NCBI GenBank assembly: GCA_030390025.1
Contig: CM059432.1
Coordinates: forward strand, 96,908,001 to 96,972,000
Length of the DNA stretch: 64,000 nt
Source: Squalus acanthias
Lineage: Eukaryota
Direction: 5' to 3'
A model generated the notes under the pieces. The model saw only the letters and a program-made list of their open reading frames with translations. It was not told where the DNA came from and made no database searches. Positions 17,998 to 48,047 of this stretch are shown one piece after another; positions within the stretch are counted from its first letter, which is position 1; each line of letters starts with the position of its first letter. The translations under genes were made by a program, and so were the position numbers.

Positions 17998-18291
17998 GAG
18001 GTGTGCCAAAATGCTGGTCATTTTTTTATTAAAGGCCGAGGTTCATGGCCCAACTTTTGTTTAGTGTTTTGGACATTATCTCCAGGTTGTGAGAACCAGT
18101 TATGTTATTGACTGTTTTTTTGTGTTTATTTCTATGAGTTTGTCATGAGGAATTGACACACACAGAGTTTGTACAATAAATAAGTTTCTGTATTCAAAAT
18201 ATACATGGCTGGTGGTTGGAATTATTGGTGCCTTGGCCGGCTTAGGGGTTGCGTGCTGGGTTGATTCGTGTTTGTAGCACTGGCAGGGGCC

Positions 18292-19452
18292 CTAGAAGCG
18301 GCTTGCTATTAGTCGTTGACGGACGGCCCTTGCAGTTTGAGCATTGTGGGCCGCCCTCCTGCCTTGGTGCTGCTGCTGATCATCGTCCTCGGCCTGTTCC
18401 TCCTCTTCCTCCTCCTCCTCTTGTGGTGCTGCAAGGCCTGGTGGCATTGGCTGCGTCCTGAGGATTGCCATGTTGTGCAACATGCAGCACACCACTACGA
18501 ATTTGGAAACTTGCTCAGGCGAGTACTGCAGGGCTCCTCCGGAATGGTCCAGACAGCGGAATCGTTGTTTGAGCACGTCGATTGTGCGCTCAATAATGTT
18601 CCTGGTTGCTTGTTGGCTTTCCTGGTTCCGCAGCTCAGCAGGGGTGTTTGGCGCACGGAGCGGTGTCATCAGCCAGGTGCTCAATGCGTACCCCTTGTCC
18701 CCCAGAAGCCAACCAACTGGCTGATGCGGTGCCTCGAAAATTTCTGCCACAGTACTCTGGCGCAGGATGAAAGCATCGTGGCAGCTGCCCGGATAGTGGG
18801 CATTGACAGCGAGAATCACCTGTCTGTGGTCACAGACCAACTGCACATTCAAGGAATGGAACCCCTTTCTGTTCCGGAACTCCTCTGCATTCTCTCGCGG
18901 AGCACGCAAAGCCACATGCGTGCAGTCAATGGCGCCCTGCACTATGGGGAAGCCCGCTACCCTCGCAAAGCCCATAGCACGGTCATGCTGCCTGTCTGGG
19001 GTCATAGGGAAGGAGATGAAGTCTCGTCTCCTTGTGAAGAGGGCATTGGTGACCTGCCGGATGCAGCGATGCACCGCAAACTGGGAGATATTGGCGAGGT
19101 CCCCAACAGCAGCTTGGAATGAGCCAGTGGCGTAGAAGTTCAAAGCCACTGTGACCTTCACTGCCACCGACAGAGACGTCCTGGACCTCAGCTGAGGCTG
19201 CAGATCTGGCTGCAGCAGGTGGCAGAGCTCAGTGACCACCTCCTTGCTGAATCGCAGCCTTCGCAAACACAGCTCCTCGGACATGTGGATGTAGGAGAGC
19301 TGTTCACGATATACCCTGGGAGGGTAAGCTCTCCTGTACATGCGCCTGATGGGCCTCCTCCGTCTGGCCATCATTGCCACTCTCTGTCTGCGTCTCACTC
19401 TCCTCCGATTGAGCTGGAGCAGGACGATGCCCCCAATCATTGCAGCCCCCAT
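18292..19452 (-). CDS. Harbinger DDE transposase (HARBI1-like family), 386 aa, uninterrupted
   Basis: [38 protein letters not shown]...LKQRFRCL, CCMLHN. Confidence 0.95.
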   Translation of the reverse strand: MGAAMIGGIVLLQLNRRRVRRRQRVAMMARRRRPIRRMYRRAYPPRVYREQLSYIHMSEELCLRRLRFSKEVVTELCHLLQPDLQPQLRSRTSLSVAVKVTVALNFYATGSFQAAVGDLANISQFAVHRCIRQVTNALFTRRRDFISFPMTPDRQHDRAMGFARVAGFPIVQGAIDCTHVALRAPRENAEEFRNRKGFHSLNVQLVCDHRQVILAVNAHYPGSCHDAFILRQSTVAEIFEAPHQPVGWLLGDKGYALSTWLMTPLRAPNTPAELRNQESQQATRNIIERTIDVLKQRFRCLDHSGGALQYSPEQVSKFVVVCCMLHNMAILRTQPMPPGLAAPQEEEEEEEEQAEDDDQQQHQGRRAAHNAQTARAVRQRLIASRF

Positions 19453-21539
19453 CTTCTCTTTGCCAGAAAAGTAATGAGGTACAGCAACGAAAGTAGCAGC
19501 AAAGTTAGGATGAACTAGGCAAAACTACCTCACAAAGCGTTGAGTCAATGTAGAAGTCTCTCTCTCTCTCTCTCCGAATCTCTCTCTCTCTCTCAGAACG
19601 AGTGGTGCATAAATGTCGACCACAGAAAAAGACAGGAAGAGGCCCCCTTTAAATAGCGTCCCCCCCAGCCCCACACCGATTGATAACGTTCCAGTCTTCC
19701 GGTCGTTGGAAGCGCCAGGCGGTAAGGCAGGGGGCGCCACTCAATTTCCGCTCCGGGGCGTCCCAAGGGCGTTGCACCACGGAATGACGTCACAATCTGC
19801 GCGCGCAGGTGGTCGCAGCGGTAAGTTTTAGCGCCGCCGCACAATCTCAAGTTAAGTTCTCGAGCGGCGCAAACAGCGCTGCGCCCGGGCGTTAGCGCCT
19901 TAACGCCCCATTAGCGCCCATTTAAGGCGCTAACGGGAGGCGCAACCAACTGAATTTTTACCCCTTAGACCTTTTAGAATTATTATTTACTGTGGCCATG
20001 TTTGATTTACACCCTTGATTTCTCTGACTGCCACTTTTGCTATTCTCCTTCCTGTCTTTTGCTTCTATCCTTGCTTCCCTTTCCTCTGTCTCCCTGCACA
20101 GGTTCCCAACCCCCTGCCATTTTAGTTTAAACCCTCCCCAAAAGCACCAGCAAACACTCCCCCTAGGACATCAGTCCCGGTCCTGCCCAGGTGCAAACCG
20201 TCCAGTTTGTACTGGTCCCACCTCCCCCAGAACCGGTTCCAATGTCCCAGAAATTTGAATCCCTCCCCCTTGCACCATTCCTCTAGCCACGTATTCATCT
20301 GAAATAGCCTTCTATTTCTACTCTGACTAGCACGTGGCACTGGTAGCAATCCTGAGATTACTACCTTTGAGGTCCTATTTTTTAATTTACCTCCTAACTC
20401 CCTATATTCAGTTTTTAGGACCTCATCCCAGTTTTTACCTATATCGTTGGTACCTATATGCACCACGACAACTGGCTGTTCGCCCTCCCTCTCCAGAATG
20501 CCCTGAAGCTGCTCTGAGACATCCGTGACCCTTGCACCAGGGAGGCAACATACCATCCTGGAGTCTCGTTTGCGGCCGCAGAAACGCCTATCTATTCCCC
20601 TTACATTAGAATCCCCTATCACTGTAGCTCTCCCGCTCTTTTTCCTCCCCACCTGTGCAGCAGAACCACCCATGGTGCCAGGAAGTTGGCTGCTGCTGCC
20701 TTCCCCCGATAAGCCATCTCCCTCAACAATATCCAAAGCGGTATATCTGTTTGAGAGGGGGATGGCCACAGGGGACTCCTGAACTACCTTCCTGCGCCTA
20801 CTACTCTGCCTGTCGGTCACCCATTCCCTTCCTGCCTATGCAGCCTTTACCTGCGATGTGACCAACTGATTAAACGTGCTATCCACAACGTCCTCAGCAT
20901 TGCAAATGCTCCAGCGCCACAATGCGGTCTGCCAGTAGCTGCAGCTGGATACACTTCCCGCACACATGGTTGTCAGGGACCCAGGAAGTGTCCCTGATTT
21001 CCCACATAGTGTAGGAGGAGCATACCACGGGGCCGAGCTGTGCTGCCATGACTTACCCTTTAATTAATTTAAATTAAATCCATGCCACTAATTACACTAC
21101 AATTAAATGATATACTCAAGGGCCCTTGTTTACTAGCACTCCCTGCTACACAACAGAGACCTTAGAAACTACAACCACAAAAATTAAGACCTTTTAAACT
21201 TTATAAACTATTAACCTTAACTGTCAAACTATAGAGTAGTATAAATACTCACCTGGCCGTACTCACCCAATCAGCTGCTTCCTCTTGCCCGCGTCACTTT
21301 TTGAATTGTGGCATGGCTTTGGTACGCCGCTGCCGGTCTGCGAGATGACCAGCCTTTGAAAAAAAGCCCGCGAAAGTAAGTTTAAATACTCACTGTACTC
21401 TCCTGTTGCTCCCGACACCGGCCTCTTCCTACAGGGTGAAAAGTTAGGAAAAACAAAGGAGAAGCAAGGGAGATCCTCCTTCCACTCCTCACCTAACTCC
21501 GACTCACCCAACTCGCAGCACTCTGTTGAAACCACACTC

Positions 21540-23013
21540 GGAAGCTCAGGGTCCCCCTTACGGACTGAACGGAGATGTTCCGCAAAGCGGTCACCCAATC
21601 TGCGTTTGGTCTTCTCAATGTAGAGGAGACCACATCGTGAGCAGCAAATACAGTATACTAGATTGCAAGAAGTACAAGTAAATTGCTGTTTCACCTGGAA
21701 GGGGTGTTTGGGGCCCTGGACAGTGGGAAGGGGGGAGGTATAACGGCATATGTTGCATTTCCTGCGCGGAAATGGCGGTGGATGATCCGTTGAATGTGAA
21801 GGCTGGTGGAGTGAAAGGTGAGGACAAGGGGAACCCTATCATGGTTCCGGGATGGAGGGGCAGGGGTGAGGGCAGAAGTGCGGGAGATGGAACGGACACG
21901 GTCAAGGGCCCTGTCAACCACAGTAGAGGGGAATCCTCGGTTGAGGAAAAAGGAAGACATGTCGAAGCTCTGGTATGTAAGGTGGCATCGTCAGAGCAGA
22001 TGCGGCGGAGACGGAGAAACTGGGAGAATGGAATAGAGTCCTTACAGGAAGCGGGATGGGAGGAAGTGTAGTCCAGGTAGCTGTGGGAGTCAGTGGGCTT
22101 GTAGTGAATGTTTGTCAATAACCTATCCCCAGAGATAGAGACGGAGAAGTCGAGGAAGGGAAGGGAAGAGTCGGAGATGGACCATGTGAAGGTGTGGAAA
22201 GGGTGGAAATTGGAAGCAAAGTGAATGAAATTTTCTAGTTCAGGGCGAGAGCAGGAAATGGCACCGATACAGTCATCAATGTACCAGAAAAAGAGGTGAG
22301 GGAGGGGACCTGAGTAGGACTGGAACAAAGAGTGTTCCACATATCCCACGAAAAGGCAGGCATAGCTAGGACCCATGCGGGTTCCCATAACAACACCTTT
22401 GATCTGGAGGAAGTGAGTGGAGTCAAAGGAGAAGTTCTTCAATGTGAGAACAAGTTCAGCCAGGCGGAGGAGGGTGGTGGTGGATGGGGACTGGTCGGGC
22501 CGCTGTTCAAGGAAGAAGCGGAGCGCCCTCAGGCCATCCTGGTGGGGGATGGAGGTGTAGAGGGATTTTACGTCCATAGTGAAAAGGAGGCGGTTGGGGC
22601 CAGGAAACTGGAAACTGTTAAAGTGGCGGAGGGCGTCGGAAGAGTCGCGGATGTAGGTGGGAAGAGACTGACAAGGGGAGAAAAAATAGAGTAGAGATAG
22701 GAAGAGATAAGTTCTGTGGGGCAAGAACAGACTGAAACGATGGGTCTACCAGGGCAGTCCTGTTTGTGGATCTTGGGAAGGATGTAGAAGCGGGCTGTGC
22801 GGGGTTGGGGAACTATGAAGTTGGCGGCCGTGGGGGGAAAGATCTCCAGAGGAGATGAGGTCAGTGGCAGTCTTGGAAACAGTAGCTTGATGTTCGGTAG
22901 TGGGTCATGGTCCAGGCAGAGGTAGGAGGAGTTGTTGGTGAGTTGGCGTTCAGCTTCCGCTAGGTAGAGGTCGGTTCGCCAAACAACAACAGCACCACCC
23001 TTGTCAGCAGGTT
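21540..23013 (-). mobile_element. Second Penelope family: RT and partial GIY-YIG, degraded
   Basis: MDVKSLYT, MGTRMGPSYA, WYIDD, FLD, HYKPTD (21615..22724); LVYCICC..LYIEKTKRRL..RFAEH (21263..21694). Confidence 0.9.
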
Positions 23014-28925: not shown

Positions 28926-31576
28926 TTAGACTGTGACCCCTGGTTCTGACTCCCCCACCATCGGGAACATCCTTCCTGCATCTAGTCTGTCTAGTCCTGT
29001 TAGAATTTTATAAGTTTCAATGAGATCCCCTCTCATTCTTCTAAACTCTAGCGGATACAAGCCCAATCGACCCAATCTCTCTTCATACGTCATTCCTGCC
29101 ATCCCAGGTATCAGTCTGGTGAATCTTCGCTGCACTCCCTCCATGGCAAGAACATCCTTCCTCAGATAAGGCGACCAAAACTGCACACAATACTCAAGGT
29201 GTGGTCTCACCAAGGCCCTGTACAACTGCAGCAAGACATCCTTGCTCCTGTACTCGAATCCTCTCGCTATGAAGGCCAACATACCATTTGCCTTCTTAAC
29301 CACCTGCTGCACCTGCATGCTTACCTTCAGCGACTGGTGCACAAGGACACCCAGGTCTCGTTGCACTTCCCCTTTTCCCAATCTATTGCCATTCAGATAA
29401 TAATCTGCCTTCCTGTTTTTGCCACCAAAGTGGGTAACCTCGCATTTATCCACATTATACTGCATCTGCCATGCATCTGCCCAATCACCCAACCTGTCCA
29501 AATCATACTGGAGTTTCTCGGCATCCTCCTTACAGCACACACACCCACCCAGCTTTGTGTCGTCTGCAAACTTGGAGATATTACATCTAGTTCCCTCATC
29601 TAGATCATTAATATATATTGTGAATAACTGGGGTCCCAGCACGGATCCCTGCGGTACCCCACTAGTCACTGCCTGCCACTCAGAAAAAGATCCGTTTATT
29701 CCAACTCTTTGCTTCCTGTCTGCCAACCAGTTTTCTATCCAAGTCAGTACCTTACCCCATTCCCATGTGCTTTAATTTTGCACGCTAATCTCTTATGCGG
29801 GACATTATCGAAAGCCTTCTGAAAGTCCAAATACACCACATCCACTGGTTCTCCCTTATCTATTCTACCAGTTACATCCTCAAAAATTCCAGTAGATCAG
29901 TCAAGCATGATTTATCTTTTGTAAATCCATGTTGACTTTGTTCGATCCTGTCACTGTTTTCCAAGTGCTCTGCTATTACATCTTTTATAATGGACTCTAG
30001 CATTTTCCCCACTACCGATGTCAGGCTTACCGGTCTATAATTCCCCGCTTTCTCTCTACCACCTTTTTTAAATAGTGGGGTTACATTAGATACCCTCCAA
30101 TCCATGAGAACTGTTCCAGATTCTATAGAGTTTTGGAAGATGACCAGCAATGCATCTGCTATTTTTAGGGCCACTTCCTTAAGTACCCTAGGATGTAGAT
30201 TATCAGGCCCTGGGGATTTATCGGCCTTCAATCCTGTCAATTTCCCGAACACCATTTCCCTACAAATACTGATTTCATTCAGTTCCTCCCTCTCATTAGA
30301 CCCTATGTTCCCCAACATCTCTGGGAGGTTATTTGTGTCCTGCTTTGTGAAGACAGAACCAAAGTATGTATTTAATTGAACTGCCATTTGTTTGTTCCCC
30401 ATTATAAATTCCCCTGATTCTGACTGCAAGGGACCTACGCTTGACTTCACCAATTTTTTTCTCTTCACATATCTATAGAAGCTTTTACAGTCACTTTTTA
30501 TGTTCCCTGGAAGCTTACTCTCATACTCTATTTTCCCCCTCTTAATTAATCCCTTTGTCCTCCTTTGCTGAATCCTAAACTGCTCCCAATCCTCAGGTTT
30601 GCTGCTTTTTCTGGCCAATTTATATGCCCTCTCCTTGGATCTTATGCTATCCCTAATTTCCCTTGTTAGCCATGGTTGAGTCACCTTTTTTGTTTTATTT
30701 TTATGCCAAACATGGATGAACAAATTCTGTAGTTCATCCATGCGATCTTTAAATGTTTGCCATTGCCTATCCACCGTCAACCCTTTAAGCAACATTCTCC
30801 AATCCATCCTAGCCAACTCGCGCCTCATACCATTGTAGTTTCCTTAATTTAAATTCAGGACCCTAGTCTCTGAGTCAACTACTTCACTCTCCATTTTAAT
30901 GAAGAATTCTATCATATTATGATCGCTCCTCCCCAAGGGGCCTCGCACAACAAGATTGCTAATTAATCCTTTCTCATCACATAATACCCAGTCGAGTATG
31001 GCCTGGTCTCTAGTTTGGTCCAGGAAACCATCCCGTATACACTCTAGGAATTCCTCCTCCACAGTATTGTTACTAATTTGGTTAGCCCAATCTATATGTA
31101 GATTAAAGTCACCCATGATAACTGCTGTGCCCTTATTGCACACATCTCTAATTTCCCATTTAATGCCATCCCCAACCTCTGCATTACTGTTTGGGGGTCT
31201 GTATACAACTCCCACTAACATTTTTTGCCCCTTGGTATTTCTCAGCTCTACCCATACCGATTCCACATCATCAGAGCTAATATCCTTCCTTACTATTGTG
31301 TTAATCTCCTCTTTAACCAGCAATGCTACCCCACCTCCTTTTCTTTTTTGCCTGCCCTTCCAAAATATTGAATACCCCTGGATGTTGAATTCCCAGCCTT
31401 GGTCACCCTGCAGCCATTTCTCCGTCATCCCAATTATATCATATCCATTTACATCTATTTGCGCAGCTAATTCATCCACCTTATTACGAATGCTCCTCGC
31501 ATTAAGACACAGAGCCTTTAGGCTTGTTTTTTTTAACACTCCCAGACAATTTAGAATTATTGTTTACTGTGGCCAT
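28926..31576 (-). pseudogene. CR1 ORF2 (APE endonuclease + RT), frameshifted
   Basis: LNARS, MGDFN, LDWV, SDH, KSPGPD, NYRPVSLTS, QHGF, GVPQGSVLGP, FADD. Confidence 0.93.
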
Positions 31577-32202
31577 GTTTGATTTACACCCTTGATTTCT
31601 CTGCCTTCCACTTTTGCTTTTCTCCTTCCTGTCTTTTGTTTCTATCCTCGCTTCCCTTTCCTCTGTCTCCCTGCACAGGTTCCCAACCCCCTGCCATTTT
31701 AGTTTAAACCCTCCCCAACAGCACTAGCAAACACTCCCCCTAGGACATCGGTCCCGGTCCTGCCCAGGTGCAAACCGTCCAGTTTGTACTGGTCCCACCT
31801 CCCCCAGAACCGGTTCCAATGTCCCAGGAATTTGAATCCCTGCCCCTTGCACCATTCCTCTAGCCACGTAGTCATCTGAAATATCCTTCTATTTCTACTC
31901 TGACTAGTACGTGGCACTGGTAGCAATCCTGAGATTACTACCTTTGAGGTCCTATTTTTTAATTTACCTCCTAACTCCCTATATTCTGCTTTTAGGACCT
32001 CATCCCATTTTTTACCTATATCGTTAGTACCTATATGCACCATGACAACTGGCAGTTCACCCTCCCTCTCCAGAATGCCCTGCAGCCGCTCCGAGACATC
32101 CTTGACCCTTGCACCAGGGAGGCAACATACCATCTCGTTTGCGGCCACAGAAATGCCTATCTATTCCCCTTACAATAGAGTCCCCTATCACTATAGCTCT
32201 CC

Positions 32203-32312
32203 TTTTCCTCTGATCTGCCGCAGCCTGTTGCTGCACTGACCCCTTCCTCTGATCTGCCGCAGCCTGTTGCTGCACTGACCCCTTCCTCTGATCTGCCGCA
32301 GCCTGTTGCTGC
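32203..32312. repeat. 39-bp tandem repeat x about 3 in the pol tail
   Basis: CTTCCTCTGATCTGCCGCAGCCTGTTGCTGCACTGACCC; encodes AATGCGRSEEGVS. Confidence 0.9.
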
Positions 32313-35300
32313 TGCGATGGGGCCGGGCTGTATCTGGGCTGCCTTAACCTTGAGTCTACGCCTTGGGACAGTCTGGGGCCATACCCACATCTTCCTGGGC
32401 TGGGGTTCTCTACTTGACCTACGGGGAGTTGTCAGGGGCAGGGATCCCATGACCGACGGACCGGGTTCCGAGACTTCCATCGGGACGACCTGTGGTTCCA
32501 CCACAGTCGCTGGCTCCGCCTCCGCTGACTCCGCCTCCCTAACCTCGGGGCTTGCAGTTTGTGGCTCCGCCCTGCTCGGCCCAGCAGGCGACCCTTCACT
32601 CACGATCTCTGCCTCCCCCGAGGGCGGGACGTTCAAAGCGGGCGGCTCGGGCTCGGAGGTTCTCACCGTCACTCCCTGTGTTCTCACAGCGGCTGGCTCC
32701 GCCTCCCCTAGCTCCTCCCTCCTGTGTTCGGGACCTGCAGCTTGTGTGTCCACCCTGTGTGGATCTCCATCTGCAGTCCGTGTCCTCCCTATACCTAAAA
32801 TGGGAACGCTCCTTACGTTCCCCAAAACCCACTCGCCTTCATCACCATCCTCATCTGACTCCCATCCCCACAAAAATGCTTCATGATCTTCCAGGATGTC
32901 TCCTCCCCTGATGCAAGCTGCTTTGCCTGCCTGTGTGCCTTGTGGTCCTACCTGGGGCTGCGCTTCCCCACTCGCGGGGTTTACCCCTGTGGTTTTCCCT
33001 TGCGCACCTGGCTTGTACAGTTTGCACTGGTTTACGTGGAACCACTTAGTGCGCCGAGGTACCTTTACGGCGTATACCATGGGACTCGCCTTGTCTACAA
33101 TATTGTAGGGTCCCATATACAGTGGTTCCAGACTCCCTACTCTGGCGTAGTTTCTGACCATGACCTGGTCTCCTACTTCCCACTCCCGCGTTTTGCGGGG
33201 TTCCAGCAACAGGCGATTGCCCTGATGCTGTCTTCCCATGTTCCCAGCCGCCTGCTCATAAACCTGCTTCAGGCGCTCCAAGAGGGTCTGGGCGAACTTG
33301 TCCCTGCTTATCTCTTGGAGCTGACCCTCAGTGAGCACCGGCGCTAGCACATGGGTGGGGGTTCGCATGAGCCTCCCAGTCATCACCTCATGCGGGGAGT
33401 ACCCCGTACTTTTTGACTGACTGGCCCGGACCCCCATGAGGACTAAAGGCAGAACTTCCGCCCATTTTTGGGGCGAGTTCCTAGTCTCTTTCCTCAATTT
33501 CTCCTTCAGGGTCCGGTTCATACGTTCAACAATCCCGGATGACTGGGGATTGTGTGCTACGTGCCACTTCCCTTCAATGCCCAAAAGCATGAGGGTGTTC
33601 TGCATCACCTGGCCGGTGAAATGACTCCCTTGGTCTGACTCCACAAAACGGGGGAGTCCCCACCGCGAGAACACTTCCCGGACCAAGATTTTTGCAGTAC
33701 CCAGTGCCGTAGCTGTTCGACAGGGGAAGGCTTCCACCCATTTGGAAAACACATCCACCAAGACGAGGCAGTATTTATAGCCTCCCTGGGTGGTGGGCAG
33801 GGGTCCTAAATAGTCGATCTGTATCGACTGCCATGGTCCCTCTACCCTTCTTACGTGTCCCATGGGCACTTTCCTTTTCTGGGGGTCTGGGTTGTTTGCA
33901 GCGCACACAAGACAGTTTGCATAGAACTCGCGGACTTGTTCCCTGAGCCCTGGCCACCATCCCGCTTGCTCTACCCGTTGCCAGGTAACCTCGGGCCCGG
34001 GGTGCCCTGCCCCTGGTCCCTCGTGAGCCAACTGGAGGAATTCCCTCCTGTGCTGCTGCGGCACAACCCACTGCTCCTCGCGGAACAGCATGCCTTCCTT
34101 AACTGAGAGGGTTGCCGTACTGTACGGACCCTCTACCTGCTTCCCCTCAGCAATGGTTTTTAGGACTGCTTTTAGGGCGGGATCCTGGGTTTGGACAGTC
34201 TTAAGGTCTAGGGGCAATGCTACCCTGGTGTTCCCGGGATTCCCGTCCCTGCCTTGGATCGCTGCCATGGGTCTGGTCCCATAGGGGTCCCAGAAAATGC
34301 CGTTGCGGGCACCTTCCCTGGCTAGCGCATCCGCCTGCTGGTATGCCCTCCCCACGGGGCTCTGTGGAGGAGTGAGCCTTCACCTTATGGATGAAAATCT
34401 CCCCTTCCTCCCCTACTGCTGCTAGGATCTTTTCCAGCAAGGGCTTCACCGTTAAAGGTCGCCCGTCCGCGGAGGTGTATCCACGGCGGGACCAAATGGC
34501 CAGGTATTCCGTACACGAATTGCAGGTGAACATACTGTCCGAGCAAATCGTGTATGGGGTTGGGAAAATGTCCGGGTGGGTAACAACGTACACCACGGCA
34601 GACAGCTCAGCCTGCTGCGCGCTCATGGTGCTAGGGAGCTTGATCGCCAGGGCAAGGTTTGCCGCAGGGTCATAAACTCCACACCCTGTGAGTCGTTCGC
34701 CAGCCGATACTGTGCTAGACCCATCAACATAAATCTCGCGCCCAGTGGGATGTATCCCGGCCCGCAAACCTATGTTGACGTCCCACACCCCTTCCACCGA
34801 ACATCGGTGGGCTGTACCGGGGTATACCAAATTGGCCGCAAGCCTGGGCTCGCAAAGACCTTTAACTCTAAGATCCATCTGGGAAAGAAGAAGGGTCCAG
34901 CGCGCAATACGCACGCTGCTTACGGTCCCATCTTTAATCCTCCCATCTAGAAGCATCTTAGTTGGTGTGTGATGTGTGAGGAGAGTGATGGGAGAGAGCC
35001 CTGTGAAGATCGCTGATCTTTTCACAGCCCAATGCGTGGCTAAAAGGTGCCTTTCGCAATTGGAGAAACTTCTCTCCACATCCGTTAACACCCTGGATGA
35101 ATAGACAACCGGCCTCAGCTTGCCGTGACGCTCTTGGAGCAGCACAGCGCTCAAGCTGTCTCCGCTGGCAGCTACCTCCAGGAAAAACTCCTTCCCCCCA
35201 TCTATGGCCCCTAAGGCTGGCGCGGTCTGCAGATCCCTTTTTAACTTCTCGAAGGCTGCTTGGCAGCCCTCGTCCCAAGACCACTCCACTCCCTTATGGA

Positions 35301-36684
35301 GGAGTCGGAGGAGCGGCGCCGCTGTGGCCGCATAGTCTTCGATAAAATCCCTGCAGTAACCGGTCAGTCCCAAGAAGGACCTCACACCCCTTATGTTGTT
35401 GGGAATCGGTAACTCTTGCACCGACTCCCTCCTAGCTTTGTCTATGGCTCTTTCCCCAGCGCAAATGGTCAGTCCCAGGAATTTTACTTCCTGCTGACCG
35501 ATACGTGCTTTCTTAGGATTTATTTTAAAACCCTTTCTCGCTAGCAGCTCCAATAACTCGTCCAGCAGTGGTCCATGCTCCTCCCTTGAATCCGTAAATA
35601 GGAGCAAATCATCCACGTACTGCACTATCTGATTGGGCTGACTAAACTCCTTTAAACTTCCTGCCATACACTGATGGAAAATACTGGGGCTATTGTGGAA
35701 ACCCTGTGGCAGACAGTTCCATGTGTACTGTTGTCCTTTGAAAGTAAAGGCAAACTTGTACTGGTCCTCTCGCCTCAGCGGGATGGACCAAAAACCGTTC
35801 GAGATATCCAACACCGTGAACGTGGTCGCGGACGCTGGGATACTCCCTATTAGGTCAGCAACTGCTGCTACCGTGGGCGCGCAGGCGGGAATGTTACTGT
35901 TAAGGACTCTGTAGTCCACCGTGGCTCTCCACGAATTATCCGGCTTCCTAACCGGCCATAATGGGGAGTTCACGTGTGTGGCTATCGGCCTCAACACGCC
36001 CTGCTGCACCAAGGAGGACATTGCTGTCTCCATATCGGGTTCTGCTTCTTTGGGGAAGTTATACTGTTTTTGGGGCCGGGTCATGGGGTCCCCATCTACG
36101 CTGACCTCAAACCCGGCAACCCTCCCACAATCGTGCTTGTGGGTTGCAAACGCGTGCATATTATCTGACACGTACGTTTGCATGTCCGTTGGGACATCTG
36201 CGACCATAAGCCCGAGGTCGTAGCCTCCGGATGGCTGCACGGTACACAGGACCCCTGTTTCCTCCTCCCCCGGAATCACTACTACCTCGCCTTTTTCACT
36301 CTTAGCCCCCCAAAGACAGTGATTTCTGAGGTCCACGAGGATCCCGTGTCCTGATAGAAGATCGGACCCGAGGATACCTCTTCCACCCCCCTCCTGCCAT
36401 TCCATCAGTATGCACTTCCACTTGAGGTGAAGTGCTCCCAAACGAATGGATAGCGGAAGGGAGAACGCGCCAGCCTGTTCTTTTCCCGTGAACCCCGCTA
36501 ATGTGAATGGGACCTTGGTAGATAGCGGCGAGTCAAAAGGGCTATCTGTATGGATTATGGTGCAAGAAGCTCCCGTGTCCAACAAATAACTACCCTTCTG
36601 TTTCTCTACCTCCATCTCCACCAAAGGTCGCTTCCACGCATCATAGCTGAGCGGACACAGGTAGACGGGCTGCGCGGGCTCTAG
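32203..36684 (-). pseudogene. pol: Pol (protease, RT, tether, RNase H, integrase, long acidic/Pro-rich tail); single 1-nt frameshift at about 34343
   Basis: LLDTGA; NSPLWPVRKPD..WRATVDYR; LDISNGF; LPQGFHNSP; YVDD; RNase H YVDGS/AQQAEL/SDS/HKVKAH; IN H..GH..C..C, QIDY, SDQG, GIVERMN, GPY; removing base 34343 restores GEGNQQAD. Confidence 0.92.
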
Positions 36685-38493
36685 TCATGGGGTACGATTA
36701 GACGGTCCTGCGGCACCTATGGGGCCGGTAGCAACCGCCACCTTTCCATGTGCACTCAATAAACTGCGCATGGCTCCCAACACTACTTCGAGGTCGTCGG
36801 GAGGGGTGGGTGCACTAGCTTCCCTTGCAGGGACAGGCGTCTGGGCTCGGGCTGCGGGAATTTTATCCCTGGAATCCTTCCAAGGGTTCCTGCAATTCTT
36901 GCGCCAGTGCCCTGTCTTCCCACACCCGTAACAAGCATTACTTGCCTGCGGGGCGCGATTCCCCTCCTGATGCCACTCCCTTTGATACGGGGCTGCGGGT
37001 CGTACCTCATGTACTTTTCCCTTAAGGGGACGTGTTCCCATACCCCTTATATTGCGATATCCTAACGTGAGTCGATTCAAGACCGACTCTTCCGTAATGT
37101 TGGGGTCATTGGGATCAAACCATGCTTTTGCCTGCTCTCTGACGGCTGGTAAACTGTTGGCTACTATGCACCTAAGCCAATGATTTAAACCGGCGCCGTC
37201 CATATCGTCGCGCTCTAGCGCACCTAGACAGCTGCGCTGATATACTGGCCACAGCCTGTCGGCAAAAACCTTCGGGGGTTCTCCCTCCATCTGCACTGTC
37301 TGTCCCACTCTAGCGAACGGACCTTCATCGTCCGCCCCCAACACTTCCAGGACCTCATTCTTTAATGCCTCATAAGTCTTGGTTCCCCTCTTGCTCTCTC
37401 CCGAGAGACACTGAAGGATTGAACTGCCTAACGAAAACAACAGCATTTTTGCTGTTTCCCCATCATCGCAGCCGTTAATGGCTGCGGTTTGCTCAACTTC
37501 TCTGAAATGTACGGAAGGGTCGTCTAACTCGGTCAGCTTCCGTACATGACTTATCATAACTCTCAGCTGGTGTGAGCTGTGAGGCAACACAAGCTGGCCG
37601 AGGAGATCCCCTGGTTCCCCCCCACCGTTTCTGTTTGGGCCCCTTTTTATACCCGTTACTGGATACAACGGTCCCTTTTCCACTTCTTTCTCAATGGGCT
37701 CTTTCGTTTCTTCCACTACTTCCTCCCTTACCCAGGTTTCCGAATAGCTGGGTGGCGCGGAGGGCGCAGTGGCTAATACTTCCTCTGCTTTACTTGGTGG
37801 GGACTTCTGAAACTCCTCTTTTACTAGCGGCTGGTGTGCTGACGGACTGATAAGGCACACCATGCCATGCGCTTTGTTTACGGCCCTTTTGAGGTGCTCT
37901 ATCTCTTTTTGGCAGGCGCTATGATCGGCTCCCTGAAACTTATCCTCAAGGGCCAACTTATATGCCGCCCTAACCCCCGTTAAGCTCTCTTCCTGAGTTC
38001 TTATCTGGGCAGCTTGGCGGGCACATCGTTCCTTTAATCTGCCCTCATTTAACTTTGCCTCAGTGACCTGGCACTCGAGGTATTCTATCCTTGTTTTATG
38101 GTGACTGGAGATTTCCTGGCGTTCTTGGTGCAGCGCACTTAAATTCCTAATGAGCAACTCCCCTCCAGAGACCTTCTCATCCATTTCTCCCTCTAAATGA
38201 CTGATTCGAGCTGTTAGCGCTGTAATGACCTGGTTTGAAATCTGGACCTGCCTTTTGTAACACATTAGCCAGACTGCTTTCTCGAGTGTCTTTTTATGTT
38301 CTTTACTATCTGTCCACCTTTCGGCTGCCTCTAGTGGACTTTTATCCGCTAACAATTCACTTATCCATTTCTTAGTTAGATTAACCTTTCCGAACACATA
38401 ATCTGCTATCTTTTCCTGCATAACATTTCGTACAGTCATACCAAAGTCTAACACACTACCCTCTCGCTGCCAGTGTCCTGCCGCGGTCGCCAT
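36685..38493 (-). CDS. gag: Gag-like protein (602 aa) with coiled-coil-like region and one CCHC zinc knuckle
   Basis: Uninterrupted ORF from ATG 38493; CYGCGKTGHWRKNC; PSAPPSY (PSAP plus PPxY late-domain-like). Confidence 0.88.
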   Translation of the reverse strand: MATAAGHWQREGSVLDFGMTVRNVMQEKIADYVFGKVNLTKKWISELLADKSPLEAAERWTDSKEHKKTLEKAVWLMCYKRQVQISNQVITALTARISHLEGEMDEKVSGGELLIRNLSALHQERQEISSHHKTRIEYLECQVTEAKLNEGRLKERCARQAAQIRTQEESLTGVRAAYKLALEDKFQGADHSACQKEIEHLKRAVNKAHGMVCLISPSAHQPLVKEEFQKSPPSKAEEVLATAPSAPPSYSETWVREEVVEETKEPIEKEVEKGPLYPVTGIKRGPNRNGGGEPGDLLGQLVLPHSSHQLRVMISHVRKLTELDDPSVHFREVEQTAAINGCDDGETAKMLLFSLGSSILQCLSGESKRGTKTYEALKNEVLEVLGADDEGPFARVGQTVQMEGEPPKVFADRLWPVYQRSCLGALERDDMDGAGLNHWLRCIVANSLPAVREQAKAWFDPNDPNITEESVLNRLTLGYRNIRGMGTRPLKGKVHEVRPAAPYQREWHQEGNRAPQASNACYGCGKTGHWRKNCRNPWKDSRDKIPAARAQTPVPAREASAPTPPDDLEVVLGAMRSLLSAHGKVAVATGPIGAAGPSNRTP

Positions 38494-38707
38494 TTTCTGT
38501 AAGGGTTTGCGTGCGTGTCTCTCAGCCTGTGAGATTCGCGCGGCTCTGTGCAGCCTGTATGTCAGTGCGGGTTTCGGCCTTGTTGCCTGTTCTGGTCTCC
38601 AGCCAGTCTGGGAGCACTAGACACACCTGTGAGTGGTTCGAATCACTCGCCCTTACGGTTCTAGACACTGGACTTAGATGCGAGAGCAGTAATGGAGATG
38701 AAACTCA

Positions 38708-40172
38708 TGTAGACTCGGTTGAATGGTACGAAATGGAAAATCTTTATTGCATAATATTCAAGATTACGAAATACATGTCATAAGCACAGATTAATGACAG
38801 TACAATCTTACACGCAGTTATGTAGCTAATTCTAGGGAAACGAGGAACGAACGACACACCGTAAATGGGGGCACACATTACAAGTATCCTTAATACTTAA
38901 GCCCTCCCCTATCAATATCTGTCCTAGCTAGATTCGTAGGATTCGAGACTCATGCTCACCACTCGTGATAACTCGGAGAAATTCCGAGTAGCTGATCGGA
39001 TGTTTTCACCGCAGCACCCACGTGTCGATCAGGGGGTCTCCTGGCCCCACTTGTTTACTTGCTTCTGCTCCGGCTAGCAGGCTGGAACGTCTGTTGTTAC
39101 GAAGATCTCTGTTGGTTGGTTTCACGTACCAGTCAACACTTAAGAGAATAATCTCTCGGTGTCCGTCATGAGGATCTGCCCTGATGGGTTTCACAGATCA
39201 GTCAATATCTCAAAGGAGAATCTTTCGGGGTCCGTTCTTTAAAGTTCAAAGAAGTCTTCCTGGCAAGGAGAAATGTCTATTCGACCTACAGGCGCGGTCG
39301 GGGCTTACTGACCGTGGCGATAAGTATGATCTTCGTCTCTTCTCATCTCATCTCATCTCTTCTCGGGCCTTTGGTTCCGATGCCGGTTACCAACACAGAT
39401 CTTCGTGACACAACACGAGGTAGATCCGAACAGATCACAAAGTTCAACAGTCTTTTAAAAGAGACACCAGGCAAACAGGAACAAGTCGGCGAGTCAAGAA
39501 CACAGGAGCAGCCACGAGGATGAACACCAGCAAGATAAGAGAAAGATGGATGGTTGGAGCTTGTAATTATAGTACAAAATCTTCCGTTTCCCGCCCAACC
39601 TTAATGCCTTTTCTTTTGTTTGGGTTTGGCGCTCAAATGTCTTGTATAGGTGATCTCCGTTTTTAATGGGTTTCGGGGCTACTCGTAAATGTCTGAGTAC
39701 CTGTTAATATTTCTCCCATTGTTAAATCGGTCGGTGTTCTCCCTGGAGGGGTTTTGGGGCTTCCAAGTGTCTTGTGTAACTACCCGCTAACGGCTCTCTC
39801 ATCGTAGAGTCGTTGGGATTTTACATATTAATGTCTTTGGATGGGCCCTTGATTACTTGGTACAATAGCCTTTATTCGTACCCGGGAGACCGATTTCAGT
39901 ATCTATGTGTATACTGCAAACCCATGATGTCTTGTGTATTATCTTCAATGTGCTGAATCTTAATCGATCTTGCACAAATGTTTATTGGAACGCCATCTTG
40001 TCTGTCTGTCGAAAAGTCTAGAATGTTCCGCCACGAGGTGCGGCGGCCATTTTACAGGCTGCTTGTGTCCACTTTGAAAACCTGACAGCATTCTGCTGAA
40101 ATAAAGCTGTTTGAACGAAACTATGTGTTTTTCTCCTTATTTATAAAATCGCGATATATTGCGAATTCTACA
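38708..40172 (-). repeat. 5' LTR, about 1465 bp
   Basis: Starts TGTAGA at 40172 exactly where CR1 homology stops; ends TCTACA at 38708; AATAAA at 38748-38743; inner end inferred because there is no second LTR. Confidence 0.72.
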
Positions 40173-40739
40173 GTGACCAATTCATTAAACGTGATATCCA
40201 TCATGTCCTCAGCATCGCGAATGCTCCAGTATGCATCCATTTGCAGCTCCAGCGCCGCAAAGCGGTCTGCAATAGCTGCAGCTGGATACACTTCCTGCAC
40301 ACATGGTCGTCAGGGACACAGGAAGTGTCCCTGATTTCCCACATCGCGCAGGAGGAGCATACCACAGGGCCAAGCTGTGCTGCCATGACTTACCCTTTAA
40401 TTATTTTAATTTAAATTAAATCAAATCAATACCAGCAATTACACTTCAATTAAATGTTATACTCAAGGGCCCTTGTTTACTAGCACTCTCCGCTACACAA
40501 CAGAGACCTTAGAAACGAAAACCACAAAATTAAGACCTTCTAAACTTGATAAATTATTAACCTTAACTGTCAAACTATAGAGTAGTATAAATACTCACCT
40601 GGCCATACTCACCCAATCAGCTGCTTCCTCTTGCCTGCGTCACTTTTTGAATCATGACGTGGCTCTGAAATGCTGCCGCCGATCTGTGAGATTGGTAAGT
40701 CTTTGAAAAAAAGCCCGTGAAAGTGAGTTTAAACACTCA

Positions 40740-43700
40740 GGGGGAGAAATTCAGTATCGCCCCATTTGGGGTGCAATTATCGGCCGGGCGCAAAGATTAG
40801 CGCCTGGCGCTAATTATCGCCACCGACTGCAAACTTGACTTTTATCGCCCCTGGAGGTGATTGCAGCGCTATATCAGGCGCTTCACACCTGTCTTAAGGC
40901 GCAAAGGCCGAGAAGCGAGGCGTTACCTCAGAGCGCTGGCGAAGCTCATGTAATGTCAGTCAGCAATGGAACACACACACAATGGCACGGGCCAGTTCTT
41001 AAAGGGGATGGTTAATCTTGCTTTCCATCCACATCCTGCTCATTGCAGCCTTGAATCTCGGCCTGGAGAGACTTGCACATCAAATGTGCTGGAAAGAACA
41101 ATGGAGAGTACCAGGCAAAGAGCTCAGAGTGCAGCCCCCACAGTCTCTGCTAAATCGATACAAGGAATGGCAAATCAAAATGAACCTGCAAAGTGCTGCT
41201 CAGTACCCAAAACTCCTTCACACAACGTTGAATCTCTCCAGAAGTCTCTCCCTCTCTCTCTCAGAATGCGTAGTTCAAAAATGGCACCAACAATAAAAGG
41301 CAGGAAGCGGTCACCTTTAAATAGCGCTCCCCCTTTCCCTTCATGACTGCAGAACGCTCCCCTCAACCTGTCGTTGCTAGCATCAGGCGGTAAGGCAGGG
41401 GGTGCCACTCAATATCCGCTCCGGGGCGATACCGGGGCGTTGCGCACTCGAGTGACGTCACGATCTGCCGGCGCAGGAGATCGTGGCGGTAGTGTTTAGC
41501 GCCGCCGCAAAATGTCTAGTTAATTTCGCGAGCGGCGCAAACTTCGCCGCGCCTGGGCGCTAGATGCTTTGCGCCCCATTAGCGCCCTCTTAAGGTGCTA
41601 ACGGGAGGCGCAACCAACTGAATTTTTTCCCCTCACGGTCCTCTCCTGTTGCTCCCGATACCGGACTTTGAAAAAAAGCCCGCAAAAGTGAGTTTAAATA
41701 CAGTCACCTCAGCTGGTAGCATTACAGAATTATGGGGGAGAAATTCAGTATCGCCCCATTTGGGGCGCAATTATCGGCCGGGCGCAAAGATTAGCGCCTG
41801 GCGCTAATTATCGCCACCGACTGCAAACTTGCGTTTATCGCCCCTGGAGGTGATTGGAGTGCTAAATCAGGCACTTCACACCTGTCTTAAGGCGCAAAGG
41901 CCGAGGAGCGAGGTGCTACCTCAGAGCGCTGGTGAAGCTCATGTAATGTCAGTCAGCAATGGAACATACACACAATGGCACGGGCCAGTTCTTAAAGGGG
42001 ATGGTTAATCTTGCTTTCCATCCACATCCTGCTCATTGCAGCCTTGAATCTCGGCCTGGAGAGACTTGCACATCAAATGTGCTGGAAAGAACAATGGAGA
42101 GTACCAGGCAAAGAGCTCAGAGTGCAGCCCCCACAGTCTCTGCTAAATCGATACAAGGAATGGCAAATCAAAATGAACCTGCAAAGTGCTGCTCAGTACC
42201 CAAAACTCCTTCACACAACGTTGAATCTCTCCAGAAGTCTCTCCCTCTCTCTCTCAGAATGCGTAGTTCAAAAATGGCACCAACAATAAAAGGCAGGAAG
42301 CGGTCACCTTTAAATAGCGCTCCCCCTTTCCCTTCATGACTGCAGAACGCTCCCCTCAACCTGTCGTTGCTAGCGTCAGGCGGTAAGGCAGGGGGTGCCA
42401 CTCAATATCCGCTCCGGGGCGATACCGGGGCGTTGCGCACTCGAGTGACGTCACGATCTGCTGGCGCAGGAGATCGTGGCGGTAGTGTTTAGCGCCGCCG
42501 CAAAATGTCTAGTTAATTTCGCGAGCGGCGCAAACTTCGCCGCGCCTGGGCGCTAGATGCTTTGCGCCCCATTAGCGCCCTCTTAAGGTGCTAACGGGAG
42601 GCGCAACCAACTGAATTTTTTCCCCTCACGGTCCTCTCCTGTTGCTCCCGATACCGGACTTTGAAAAAAAGCCCGCAAAAGTGAGTTTAAATACAGTCAC
42701 CTCAGCTGGTAGCATTACAGAATTATGGGGGAGAAATTCAGTATCGCCCCATTTGGGGCGCAATTATCGGCCGGGCGCAAAGATTAGCGCCTGGCGCTAA
42801 TTATCGCCACCGACTGCAAACTTGCGTTTATCGCCCCTGGAGGTGATTGGAGTGCTAAATCAGGCACTTCACACCTGTCTTAAGGCGCAAAGGCCGAGGA
42901 GCGAGGTGCTACCTCAGAGCGCTGGTGAAGCTCATTTAATGTCAGTCAGCAATGGAACATACACACAATGGCACGGGCCAGTTCTTAAAGGGGATGGTTA
43001 ATCTTGCTTTCCATCCACATCCTGCTCATTGCAGCCTTGAATCTCGGCCTGGAGAGACTTGCACATCAAATGTGCTGGAAAGAACAATGGAGAGTACCAG
43101 GCAAAGAGCTCAGAGTGCAGCCCCCACAGTCTCTGCTAAATCGATACAAGGAATGGCAAATCAAAATGAACCTGCAAAGTGCTGCTCAGTACCCAAAACT
43201 CCTTCACACAACGTTGAATCTCTCCAGAAGTCTCTCCCTCTCTCTCTCAGAATGCGTAGTTCAAAAATGGCACCAACAATAAAAGGCAGGAAGCGGTCAC
43301 CTTTAAATAGCGCTCCCCCTTCCCCTTCATGACTGCAGAACGCTCCCCTCAACCTGTCGTTGCTAGCGTCAGGCGGTAAGGCAGGGGGTGCCACTCAATA
43401 TCCGCTCCGGGGCGATACCGGGGCGTTGCGCACTCGAGTGACGTCACGATCTGCCGGCGCAGGAGATCGTGGCGGTAGTGTTTAGCGCCGCCGCAAAATG
43501 TCTAGTTAATTTCGCGAGCGGCGCAAACTTCGCCGCGCCTGGGCGCTAGATGCTTTGCGCCCCATTAGCGCCCTCTTAAGGTGCTAACGGGAGGCGCAAC
43601 CAACTGAATTTTTTCCCCTCACGGTCCTCTCCTGTTGCTCCCGATACCGGACTTTGAAAAAAAGCCCGCAAAAGTGAGTTTAAATACAGTCACCTCAGCT

Positions 43701-46596
43701 GGTAGCATTACAGAATTATGGGGGAGAAATTCAGTATCGCCCCATTTGGGGCGCAATTATCGGCCGGGCGCAAAGATTAGCGCCTGGCGCTAATTATCGC
43801 CACCGACTGCAAACTTGCGTTTATCGCCCCTGGAGGTGATTGGAGTGCTAAATCAGGCACTTCACACCTGTCTTAAGGCGCAAAGGCCGAGGAGCGAGGT
43901 GCTACCTCAGAGCGCTGGTGAAGCTCATGTAATGTCAGTCAGCAATGGAACATACACACAATGGCACGGGCCAGTTCTTAAAGGGGATGGTTAATCTTGC
44001 TTTCCATCCACATCCTGCTCATTGCAGCCTTGAATCTCGGCCTGGAGAGACTTGCACATCAAATGTGCTGGAAAGAACAATGGAGAGTACCAGGCAAAGA
44101 GCTCAGAGTGCAGCCCCCACAGTCTCTGCTAAATCGATACAAGGAATGGCAAATCAAAATGAACCTGCAAAGTGCTGCTCAGTACCCAAAACTCCTTCAC
44201 ACAACGTTGAATCTCTCCAGAAGTCTCTCCCTCTCTCTCTCAGAATGCGTAGTTCAAAAATGGCACCAACAATAAAAGGCAGGAAGCGGTCACCTTTAAA
44301 TAGCGCTCCCCCTTTCCCTTCATGACTGCAGAACGCTCCCCTCAACCTGTCGTTGCTAGCGTCAGGCGGTAAGGCAGGGGGTGCCACTCAATATCCGCTC
44401 CGGGGCGATACCGGGGCGTTGCGCACTCGAGTGACGTCAAGATCTGCTGGCGCAGGAGATCGTGGCGGTAGTGTTTAGCGCCGCCGCAAAATGTCTAGTT
44501 AATTTCGCGAGCGGCGCAAACTTCGCCGCGCCTGGGCGCTAGATGCTTTGCGCCCCATTAGCGCCCTCTTAAGGTGCTAACGGGAGGCGCAACCAACTGA
44601 ATTTTTTCCCCTCACGGTCCTCTCCTGTTGCTCCCGATACCGGACTTTGAAAAAAAGCCCGCAAAAGTGAGTTTAAATACAGTCACCTCAGCTGGTAGCA
44701 TTACAGAATTATGGGGGAGAAATTCAGTATCGCCCCATTTGGGGCGCAATTATCGGCCGGGCGCAAAGATTAGCGCCTGGCGCTAATTATCGCCACCGAC
44801 TGCAAACTTGCGTTTATCGCCCCTGGAGGTGATTGGAGTGCTAAATCAGGCACTTCACACCTGTCTTAAGGCGCAAAGGCCGAGGAGCGAGGTGCTACCT
44901 CAGAGCGCTGGTGAAGCTCATTTAATGTCAGTCAGCAATGGAACATACACACAATGGCACGGGCCAGTTCTTAAAGGGGATGGTTAATCTTGCTTTCCAT
45001 CCACATCCTGCTCATTGCAGCCTTGAATCTCGGCCTGGAGAGACTTGCACATCAAATGTGCTGGAAAGAACAATGGAGAGTACCAGGCAAAGAGCTCAGA
45101 GTGCAGCCCCCACAGTCTCTGCTAAATCGATACAAGGAATGGCAAATCAAAATGAACCTGCAAAGTGCTGCTCAGTACCCAAAACTCCTTCACACAACGT
45201 TGAATCTCTCCAGAAGTCTCTCCCTCTCTCTCTCAGAATGCGTAGTTCAAAAATGGCACCAACAATAAAAGGCAGGAAGCGGTCACCTTTAAATAGCGCT
45301 CCCCCTTTCCCTTCATGACTGCAGAACGCTCCCCTCAACCTGTCGTTGCTAGCGTCAGGCGGTAAGGCAGGGGGTGCCACTCAATATCCGCTCCGGGGCG
45401 ATACCGGGGCGTTGCGCACTCGAGTGACGTCACGATCTGCCGGCGCAGGAGATCGTGGCGGTAGTGTTTAGCGCCGCCGCAAAATGTCTAGTTAATTTCG
45501 CGAGCGGCGCAAACTTCGCCGCGCCTGGGCGCTAGATGCTTTGCGCCCCATTAGCGCCCTCTTAAGGTGCTAACGGGAGGCGCAACCAACTGAATTTTTT
45601 CCCCTCACGGTCCTCTCCTGTTGCTCCCGATACCGGACTTTGAAAAAAAGCCCGCAAAAGTGAGTTTAAATACAGTCACCTCAGCTGGTAGCATTACAGA
45701 ATTATGGGCGAGAAATTCAGTATCGCCCCATTTGGGGCGCAATTATCGGCCGGGCGCAAAGATTAGCGCCTGGCGCTAATTATCGCCACCGACTGCAAAC
45801 TTGCGTTTATCGCCCCTGGAGGTGATTGGAGTGCTAAATCAGGCACTTCACACCTGTCTTAAGGCGCAAAGGCCGAGGAGCGAGGTGCTACCTCAGAGCG
45901 CTGGTGAAGCTCATGTAATGTCAGTCAGCAATGGAACATACACACAATGGCACGGGCCAGTTCTTAAAGGGGATGGTTAATCTTGTTCTCCATCCACATC
46001 CTGCTCATTGCATCCTTGAATCTCTGCCTGGAGTGACCTGCACATCAAATCTGCTGGAAAGAACAATGGAGAGTACCAGGCAAAGAGCTCAGAGTGCAGG
46101 ACCAAAGTCTCTTCTAAATCAATACAAGGAATGGCAAATCAAAATGAACCTGCAAAGTGCTGCTCAGTACCCAAAACTCCTTCACACAGCGTTGAATCTC
46201 TCCAGAAGTCTCTCCCTCTCTCTCTCAGAATGCGTAGTTCAAAAATGGCACCAACAATAAGAGGCAGGAAGCGGTCACCTTTAAATAGCACTCCCCCTTT
46301 CCCTTCATGACTGCAGAACGCTCCCCTCAACCTGTCGTTGCTTGCGTCAGGCGGTTAGGCAGGGGGCGCCACTCAATATCCGCTCCGGGGCGATACCGGG
46401 GCGTTGCGCACTCGAGTGACGTCACGATCTGCCGGCGCAGGAGATTGTGGCGGTAGTGTTTAGCGCCGCCGCAAAATGTCTAGTTAATTTCGTGAGCGGC
46501 GCAAACATGTCCGCGCCTGGGCGCTAGATGATTTGCGCCCCATTAGTGCCCTCTTAAGGCGCTAACGGGAGGCGCAACCAACTAAATTTTTCCCCC
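40740..46596 (+). repeat. Tandem array of six Harbinger MITEs, 993-bp period (about 893-bp MITE + about 100-bp spacer)
   Basis: MITE starts at 40740, 41734, 42727, 43720, 44713, 45706; ORF track repeats every 993 bp; TIR GGGGGAGAAATTCAGT. Confidence 0.97.
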
Positions 46597-48047
46597 TATG
46601 TCTCTTCTCTAGGTGTTCTAAGTTTACCATAAAAAACGGTGTAATGGCAGGTGCGTTTTACTTGATGTCATTTTTACGAAGGCAGATGTTTGTGCTTTTT
46701 TACGAAGTGTAAATTAGAACCCCTTAACCAGGGTGAACCATTGTCTTGTTCCAAAAGATTCAGACTAACGGAGCCTTTAACCTTCTGTTTCAATAAGGTT
46801 ATTGATTCAGTGTCAACAACTATCTTATCTCTAAAGCCAGAATGCTATCACAGCTTTTTCATAGTTAGGTTTCTAGATTTCCAGACCCGGTTTGTCATGT
46901 TTTAATAAGGCCAGAATTCTTTCATGGAATGGTGTATTTTTCTGAAGAGGTTATATGGCTTATTCCTTCACAGCAGGAGAGCTTGGGGGAGCAGGGGGAA
47001 GCAATCCTGCACCTCCTGGGGTGGAAGTAGTGCTGTAAGGGCAGTTACCTTTTCCCTGAAACTGTCCTCACCTCCCTTGAGTTGCTGGGTTTCCCAAGAC
47101 CTGGGAATCCCGGCTGGCCAGGGTTAAATCTGTAAGGGAAGTTAAATGTCAGGCTCCCAGCCTTATTATAATATTTAAATGTCAATCCACCTCCTGGGAG
47201 CCGGTTCGCTGCCCTCCCCCTGTTCTGCCTCCGTTAAACCCTGAAGTGGGTGGGTTGAAGGCGGGTTGAGGTCGGGTTTGAAATTTTAAAATTTTTTACA
47301 TCTCACGTGACCCCAACCCACCTGTTTTGGGTGGTTAAAATTCACCCCATTGAGTCTATAGCACAGAAACAGGCCATTCGTGCCCAACTGGTCAATGCCA
47401 GCGTTTATGTTCCACAGGAGATCCTTCCCACCCCTCTTCATCTGAACCCTGTTTAACTAAGTTACAGTCTGACACTATGTCACACATACAATAACCAAGG
47501 CGGGAATTTTCTGGCTGCCATGTGTGCCGGATTGGAGGCAGGTCGGGAATGAAAGTTGAAATAAATTGGAGCGGATCGGGAACTCGCTGTCATCCCACCT
47601 CCTCGCGCCTTTTACTTGGGCGCGTTTGCCTGCGCAGCCTCGACCTGAACGGCAAAGGCGGCCGACCTAATTTTGATAATTATTAGGTTGTTGTCAGACT
47701 GTTAAGCGTCCTTTTAACCCTACCTTTGGAATTTCACTGCATGACCACGGGAATCAAGCAGCTTGGGAACCACGACTATGAATCTGAGGCGGAAGTTCAG
47801 TCGCCATTGATGGAACTCATTACTGCACAGCATGGAAAGCACAATAAATAATCCCACCTGATACCTGGTTACTTTCCCAAGGCAGATGCTTTTGCTGAGT
47901 GCATTGTGAGCACAGATTTAGGTTTCTAGAGGTTGCAAGTGTTTTCAGCAAATTCGGGAACCACTGTCACCTCATTGTTACAACCTTTCACACCATTGAC
48001 AGATTGCTTCTTTCATCTCTACTTGACCTGCCATCTATTACATCAGC

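Follow-up and report, generated by a model that had tools for sequence, protein, structure and literature searches.

The window, the whole 64,000-nt stretch of DNA analysed here, contains on its minus strand a multi-copy endogenous retrovirus in which gag ends at a UGA that is followed by CUAG and lies in frame with pro-pol. Judging from the junction and its relatives, the active ancestor of this copy very likely produced Gag-Pro-Pol by readthrough of the gag UGA, and the signal probably includes, besides UGA-CUAG, a predicted RNA rod of ~220 nt. In-frame stop codons between gag and pol, UGA among them, are known; what is apparently new is a two-part signal of the alphavirus type. A preliminary description of this DNA had proposed that programmed UGA readthrough sets the Gag:Gag-Pol ratio of the element, and the proposal is supported by a stop codon that is in register across copies and relatives and by conservation of the peptide encoded after it.

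The provirus and its reading frames

The provirus, its gag-pol junction and the LINE that it splits are mapped in Table 1. Pfam matches run in the order protease, reverse transcriptase (RT), tether (a degenerate RNase H), RNase H and integrase, and this PR-RT-tether-RNase H-IN order with dual RNase H is that of Retroviridae (ERVs). The N-terminal third of Gag looks coiled-coil when judged by eye, and the active-site Asp of the protease is codon 36 (36579-36577). Comparison with intact relatives by tblastn places a shift of the Pol frame at 34334-34315, at the end of RNase H, and neither env nor a second LTR is present in the window, the 3' end of the provirus having been lost at the LINE junction. 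With the RNase H frame broken and the 3' end lost, the window copy is defective and could not yield an intact Pol; because the copy is broken, its readthrough signal is counted as an inheritance from an active ancestor.

The host LINE, which we take to be CR1-like, halts at 40173 and resumes at 32202, and about 225 nt of LINE sequence are absent at the junction, as is the 3' end of the provirus. At this deletion junction (32205-32312), within the long open tail that follows integrase, a 39-nt unit occurs three times.

Table 1. Positions of the provirus, its gag-pol junction and the host LINE in the window
Feature	Position	Strand	Basis
gag, 602 aa from ATG 38493	36685..38493	minus	ORF, Pfam; one CCHC zinc knuckle near 36936-36889
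pro-pol, first frame: protease, RT (YVDD), tether, RNase H	34330..36684	minus	Pfam
pol, second frame: integrase (to ~33015) and open low-complexity tail into LINE	32157..34334	minus	ORF, Pfam, tblastn
5' non-coding region (LTR and leader)	38494..40172	minus	Begins TGT at LINE junction
Gag stop UGA, in frame with pro-pol, proposed readthrough site	36685..36687	minus	Sequence; no variant among those listed, 4 runs
CUAG 3' context, Beier-Grimm type II (UGA-CUA)	36681..36684	minus	Sequence; class definition in accessible parts of PMC13517186, PMC3159437
Predicted unbranched RNA rod, 84 pairs (45 G-C, 29 A-U, 10 G-U)	36462..36682	minus	Folding
Host LINE, 5' part, split by provirus	40173..40739	minus	Resembles LINE copies 20858-21392, 14383-14684
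Host LINE, 3' part (endonuclease, RT)	28926..32202	minus	Pfam, self-comparison

The gag-pol junction

On the minus strand the codons around the gag stop read ACC CCA TGA CTA GAG CCC, with the TGA at 36687-36685, and the stop-to-stop ORFs 38616-36685 and 36684-34201 adjoin in one shared frame. The 60 nt after the stop (36684-36625) translate as LEPAQPVYLCPLSYDAWKRP, followed by LVEM..LLDTGA. Sequence and ORF coordinates thus confirm the preliminary description in placing gag and pol in the same frame across UGA-CUAG with 60 open nt between them; the start that it gave to the pol ORF, 36624, is a TTG codon, and the open pol frame begins immediately 3' of the gag stop. Since gag and pol share a frame, Pol would most simply be made by readthrough. 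CTAG follows 8 of the 2267 TGA triplets on both strands of the window and 1 of the 98 on the sense strand of the element, the one at the gag-pol junction. The junction thus has UGA-CUA, one of the two type II hexamers (UGA-CUA or UGA-CGG), in frame with a downstream ORF, and its UGA-C differs from the UAG-G of the gammaretroviral type III signal. A -1 frameshift between gag and pol was also considered and was rejected, as the junction has no slippery heptamer nearby and the remaining two frames are closed.

The stretch that follows the stop recurs as PL...RP in three relatives (the predicted proteins P0002 and P0273, and the 10,688-nt provirus L001) and as PL...R in a fourth (P0126). The first AUG after the stop is codon 24, 12 codons ahead of the protease Asp, and none of these four relatives has a Met counterpart to it. 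Because its peptide is conserved in relatives, the segment between the stop and this AUG was probably translated. The in-frame AUG so close to the protease would suit a Pol made by reinitiation or internal initiation; however, it is unmatched in 4 of the 4 relatives that span the site, and a start there would drop the conserved N-terminal stretch. We regard such initiation, taken together with recoding of the UGA by A-to-I editing or as selenocysteine, as very improbable.

The stop codon in copies and relatives

Variants were drawn from 4 sequencing runs of four organisms, and 20 of the 24 runs listed contain part of the stretch. Among the best 40 of 67 variants, none falls at positions 36688-36680, none places a sense codon at the gag stop and none is an indel; each of the four runs has variants at the neighbouring positions 36689, 36679 and 36673. 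We infer that a sense-codon majority would have ranked among the best-supported variants, and minor variants at the stop may exist beyond the best 40 of 67 variants and 20 of 49 loose ends. The span 36544-36672, free of listed variants, is not used as evidence; its cover is interrupted at 36595-36622.

The 20 of 49 loose ends, which were read by hand, revealed two further subfamilies with different gag tails and the TGA in register. The subfamily in runs X3 and X7 differs in its gag tail and can be aligned starting with the stop. The other, seen in one X12 contig, has a gag end identical to that of a Gag protein from a skate (P0122), then the TGA in register, then CATC rather than CTAG. As to whether TGACTAG is fixed, a question raised in the preliminary description, the TGA is fixed and no listed variant falls within TGACTAG, but CUAG is not fixed in the lineage because the X12 contig reads UGA-CAUC; the stop and the C at +4 hold. 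The Gag proteins P0122 (53% identity) and P0123 (44%) terminate at the homologous residue, and in L001 the stop is in frame, 31 codons ahead of the protease Asp vs 35 in the window.

A sense codon in other copies, which the preliminary description had named as the sign of a private nonsense mutation, was found neither among the listed variants nor in the two divergent subfamilies nor in the Gag relatives. A TGA that arose by nonsense mutation in a once-fused gag-pol, whether private or fixed in one master copy, would fit a window copy that carries another lesion, in the gene models of P0002 and P0273 gag-like sequence leads into protease with no intervening stop, and some lokiretroviruses are annotated with a fused ORF. 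Nevertheless, four organisms, three gag-tail subfamilies, two distant Gag proteins and L001 all have the stop in register. These observations largely refute the nonsense mutation, which we consider extremely improbable.

Foamy viruses express Pol from a spliced mRNA. A similar arrangement here would use an acceptor at or near CTAG to remove the stop, and by eye a CTAAT ~20 nt upstream and the CTAG do resemble a branch point and an acceptor; in the skate-type contig a CAG occurs two bases farther downstream. However, the pyrimidine tract is weak, the phase of the acceptor would be unequal between subfamilies, and 3 of 7 lokiretrovirus junctions have CTAA in place of CTAG. Splicing would also have no need of a frame shared by gag and pol, and no spliced joint was found among the contigs, which come from DNA or unlabelled runs. 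Splicing is thus improbable as the route to Pol.

A predicted RNA rod after the stop codon

Folding predicts a rod that spans +6 to +226 (core +16 to +217, 36672-36471) and overlaps the start and the active-site codons of the protease. It starts within 5-15 nt of the stop and, by prediction, provides the extended 3' stem that begins ~8-16 nt after the stop in type II signals. A single unbranched rod appeared in folds of 218 nt (z -4.12) and of 230 nt (z -4.91, which replaces a z of -7.3 from 30 shuffles), with 0 of 200 shuffles for either length, and folding just 50-160 nt downstream of the stop gave no structure (z -1.8 to +1.2; -0.82 at 155 nt), the rod being captured only in fold windows of 200 nt or more. 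The stimulatory stem that the preliminary description sought in the downstream 150 nt is thus missed at that length and appears, as a rod of ~220 nt, in longer windows. The antisense strand folds more weakly (-83.1 vs -95.8 kcal/mol). Across 775 windows of the 7.7-kb element this is the longest rod, with 84 pairs vs 57 for the next; 76 pairs were reached by 0 of 300 shuffles, and the 14 other retroviral junctions have at most 31 pairs. In three wider folds, each of four sampled core pairs had p=1.00. The next-longest rods of the element lie at 33731-33563, 38967-38811 and 39644-39495 (57, 54 and 50 pairs).

Eleven listed variants fall in +1 to +218, five at unpaired sites and six at paired sites, and 6 of the 6 at paired sites retain the pair, all by one-sided A/G changes opposite U. 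The chance of finding no broken pair is ~0.03 when the whole rod is counted and ~0.08 when the count is confined to the 3' arm, the site of all 9 variants, and two-sided covariation is absent among the listed variants. The element is structured generally, with z <= -4 in 4 of 55 stepped windows, one of which overlaps the rod. We regard the rod as well predicted and its conservation as suggestive.

In the proposed mechanism, most ribosomes would terminate at the gag UGA and release Gag, and a few percent would insert an amino acid and continue into protease, RT, RNase H and integrase. As in alphaviruses, two parts would make up the signal: the UGA-CUAG context, and an extended RNA stem that would have its base at the mRNA entry channel (~+12 to +16) while the UGA occupies the A site. 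UGA-CUAG drives readthrough in reporters, with 1.5% for UGA-CUA alone (PMC4132726). The stem of Sindbis virus (SINV), which begins at +16, raises readthrough 3.2-fold, and that of Venezuelan equine encephalitis virus (VEEV), which begins at +12, raises it 9.5-fold (PMC13517186), and alphavirus readthrough with an extended stem is also described in PMC3159437. On these grounds we lean slightly toward a rod that stimulates readthrough.

It is also possible, though unlikely, that readthrough is real, that UGA-C(UAG) suffices for it, and that the rod serves packaging, dimerisation, splicing control or nothing. Maximal readthrough of four mammalian genes was obtained from 12 nt after the stop (PMC4132726), the effect of structure in chikungunya virus (CHIKV) is described as unresolved in PMC13517186, the element has strong folds elsewhere, and the listed variants lack two-sided covariation. 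A rod without a role in readthrough would, however, leave to coincidence that the longest rod of the element starts 5-15 nt from the stop, where alphavirus stems start. The long duplex could also attract ADAR, as recoding of the stop by editing would need, but the UGA is not part of the rod, and the pairing predicted for it depends on the fold window. Also against recoding, no Rfam family comes near threshold over 36300-37000; a single miRNA match, weak at 18.5 bits against 70, was dismissed.

Relatives and classification

The closest named Gag relative is P0122, and the window Gag matches that of L001 weakly (E 5e-05). The top Pol relatives (41-44% identity) come from coelacanth and Xenopus, and Pol is 34% identical to a snakehead retrovirus (SnRV)-type protein. 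The skate Gag and these top Pol relatives make a cartilaginous fish the likely host of the family. L001 is taken as SnRV because its UAG-GGC junction equals the published context (PMC13517186). No relative was found among the viral contigs scanned with the window Pol, and alignment scans gave 61 metagenome and 15 viral loci, mostly gamma-like and with <=39% identity in the best segment.

In an RT tree of 69 rows, which contains no named ERV-L or OVEX1 reference, the window element falls within the retrovirus clade, on a 99/99 branch with foamy viruses, gammaretroviruses and L001 and apart from Ty3/gypsy. Within it the element groups loosely with L001 (88/76; SH-aLRT 87 in a second tree). This loose grouping with SnRV, together with the in-frame gag-pol stop and the single zinc knuckle, favours placing the element in the SnRV-related (clade Huo, class III-like) radiation. 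SnRV-related ERVs constitute clade Huo (PMC6001957) and occur in elephant shark (PMC4422223). Membership of the lokiretroviruses was rejected: the RT lies outside Loki-like proteins (99/99 branch; AU p 0.0143, for a group picked after the first tree and with the Loki label of P0007 and its kin resting on a by-eye match to supplement text).

Comparison with known readthrough systems

The preliminary description had set UAG plus a pseudoknot or frameshifting against the present junction; this was corrected, as in-frame gag-pol stops, UGA too, are known in aquatic and class III retroviruses. In SnRV and OVEX1, as in the window, gag and pol share one frame with a single, presumably suppressed stop, one zinc knuckle, and tether plus RNase H. 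Their stops are described as amber (PMC2717909, PMC1224870); SnRV differs further in its UAG-GGC (type III-like) context and the lack of a long rod, and env is lost in the window copy. MoMLV resembles the window in using an in-frame stop and a 3' structure to set the Gag:Gag-Pol ratio, but has UAG-G with a ~50-nt pseudoknot and belongs to a separate RT clade. XtERV-S and bullfrog class III ERVs have an in-frame TGA between gag and pol that is stated to be suppressible (PMC8278194), but are ERV-L-like, with YIDD, no distinguishable NC and a dUTPase-like segment. Lokiretroviruses share with the window the tether plus RNase H and TGA-CTA-R at gag-pol (PMC7947760). Among the other loci examined, the gamma-related ERVs L018 and L026 have TGA CGG, the other type II hexamer, at gag-pol and no long stem, and the gag-pol junctions of L043 and L060 have an in-frame TGA followed by G.

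The closest parallel in design is the nsP3/nsP4 junction of alphaviruses (SINV, VEEV), with UGA-CUA, a short spacer, a long-range stem from +12 to +16 and a polymerase downstream. The alphavirus structures measure 126-177 nt and are closed by two short distant segments, whereas the predicted rod of the window, ~220 nt, is paired throughout (PMC13517186 for the alphaviruses).

As vertebrate genes with a UGA-CUA(G) stop, the preliminary description had named AQP4, MDH1 and LDHB, the last of which is reportedly such a gene. AQP4 and MDH1 stand, and with OPRL1, OPRK1 and MAPK10 they carry the same UGA-CUAG heptamer, in their case with short cellular extensions and no need of structure; LDHB has no hit in the accessible text of PMC4132726. 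In AQP4, conservation of the extension reaches as far as cartilaginous fishes (PMC4132726).

Recurrence of UGA-CUA at gag-pol junctions

In the lokiretrovirus consensuses of PMC7947760 (data set S1), the stop is followed in the same way wherever it is readable: TGA-CTA-R in 7 of 7, with TGA CTA A in Bsp, Lro and Dcl and TGA CTA G in Ofa, Cne, Pyo and Sau. By eye, 6 of these 7 junctions are in frame with the annotated pol; of the remaining consensuses among the 24, 7 are annotated with a fused ORF and 10 have no readable junction. The first bullfrog provirus of PMC8278194 (supplements 4 and 5) reads GAT TGA CTA GAG, and XtERV-S and XlERV-S read GAT TGA CAG.

The accessible main text of PMC7947760 has no hit for readthrough or stop codon, that of PMC8278194 does not discuss the UGA-CUA context, that of PMC9040795 has no hit on junction readthrough, and the accessible parts of PMC10435555 and PMC4299795 add nothing further on the junction. 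The retroviral contexts in the available part of a 2026 review (PMC13517186) are UAG-G types together with UGAAGA, UGACGA and UGAAGU, and do not include UGA-CUA; outside gamma- and epsilonretroviruses it lists UGAAGA, UGACGA, UGAAGU and UAGGGC, and it calls the cis-elements outside gammaretroviruses unclear. In the accessible open literature we found no report of a UGA-CUA(G) signal or of an extended stem in retroviruses; subscription papers and Repbase may mention one.

Taken over the fish ERV family of the window, a frog class III ERV and the lokiretroviruses, it is rather likely that type II readthrough at UGA-CUA(R), in some lineages with a long stem, is a widespread and overlooked gag-pol strategy of deep-branching retroviruses. 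That it is the ancestral retroviral state, from which UAG plus pseudoknot and frameshifting were derived later, is doubtful, but the ancestral Gag-Pol strategy becomes a testable question. If confirmed, the two-part signal would give retroviruses a second, alphavirus-like readthrough design and provide a short cassette that can be assayed. The recurrence also points to a misreading of the junction, in lokiretroviruses and class III-like ERVs, by pipelines that break up or drop gag-pol pairs of this kind.

Other features of the window

A 993-nt unit is repeated six times head-to-tail at 40700-46600, the copies being 94-100% alike, and dispersed copies lie at 9483-10402 (inverted), 15782 and 63583. 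Convergent ORFs at 16855-19524, presumably Harbinger-like, encode a DDE_Tnp_4 transposase (410 aa, minus strand) and a 380-aa product (plus strand) without a Pfam match. Divergent RT ORFs, which we take to be Penelope-like, are found at 4296-6395 (699 aa) and 21615-22745 (376 aa), with a part duplicated at 2603-3461.
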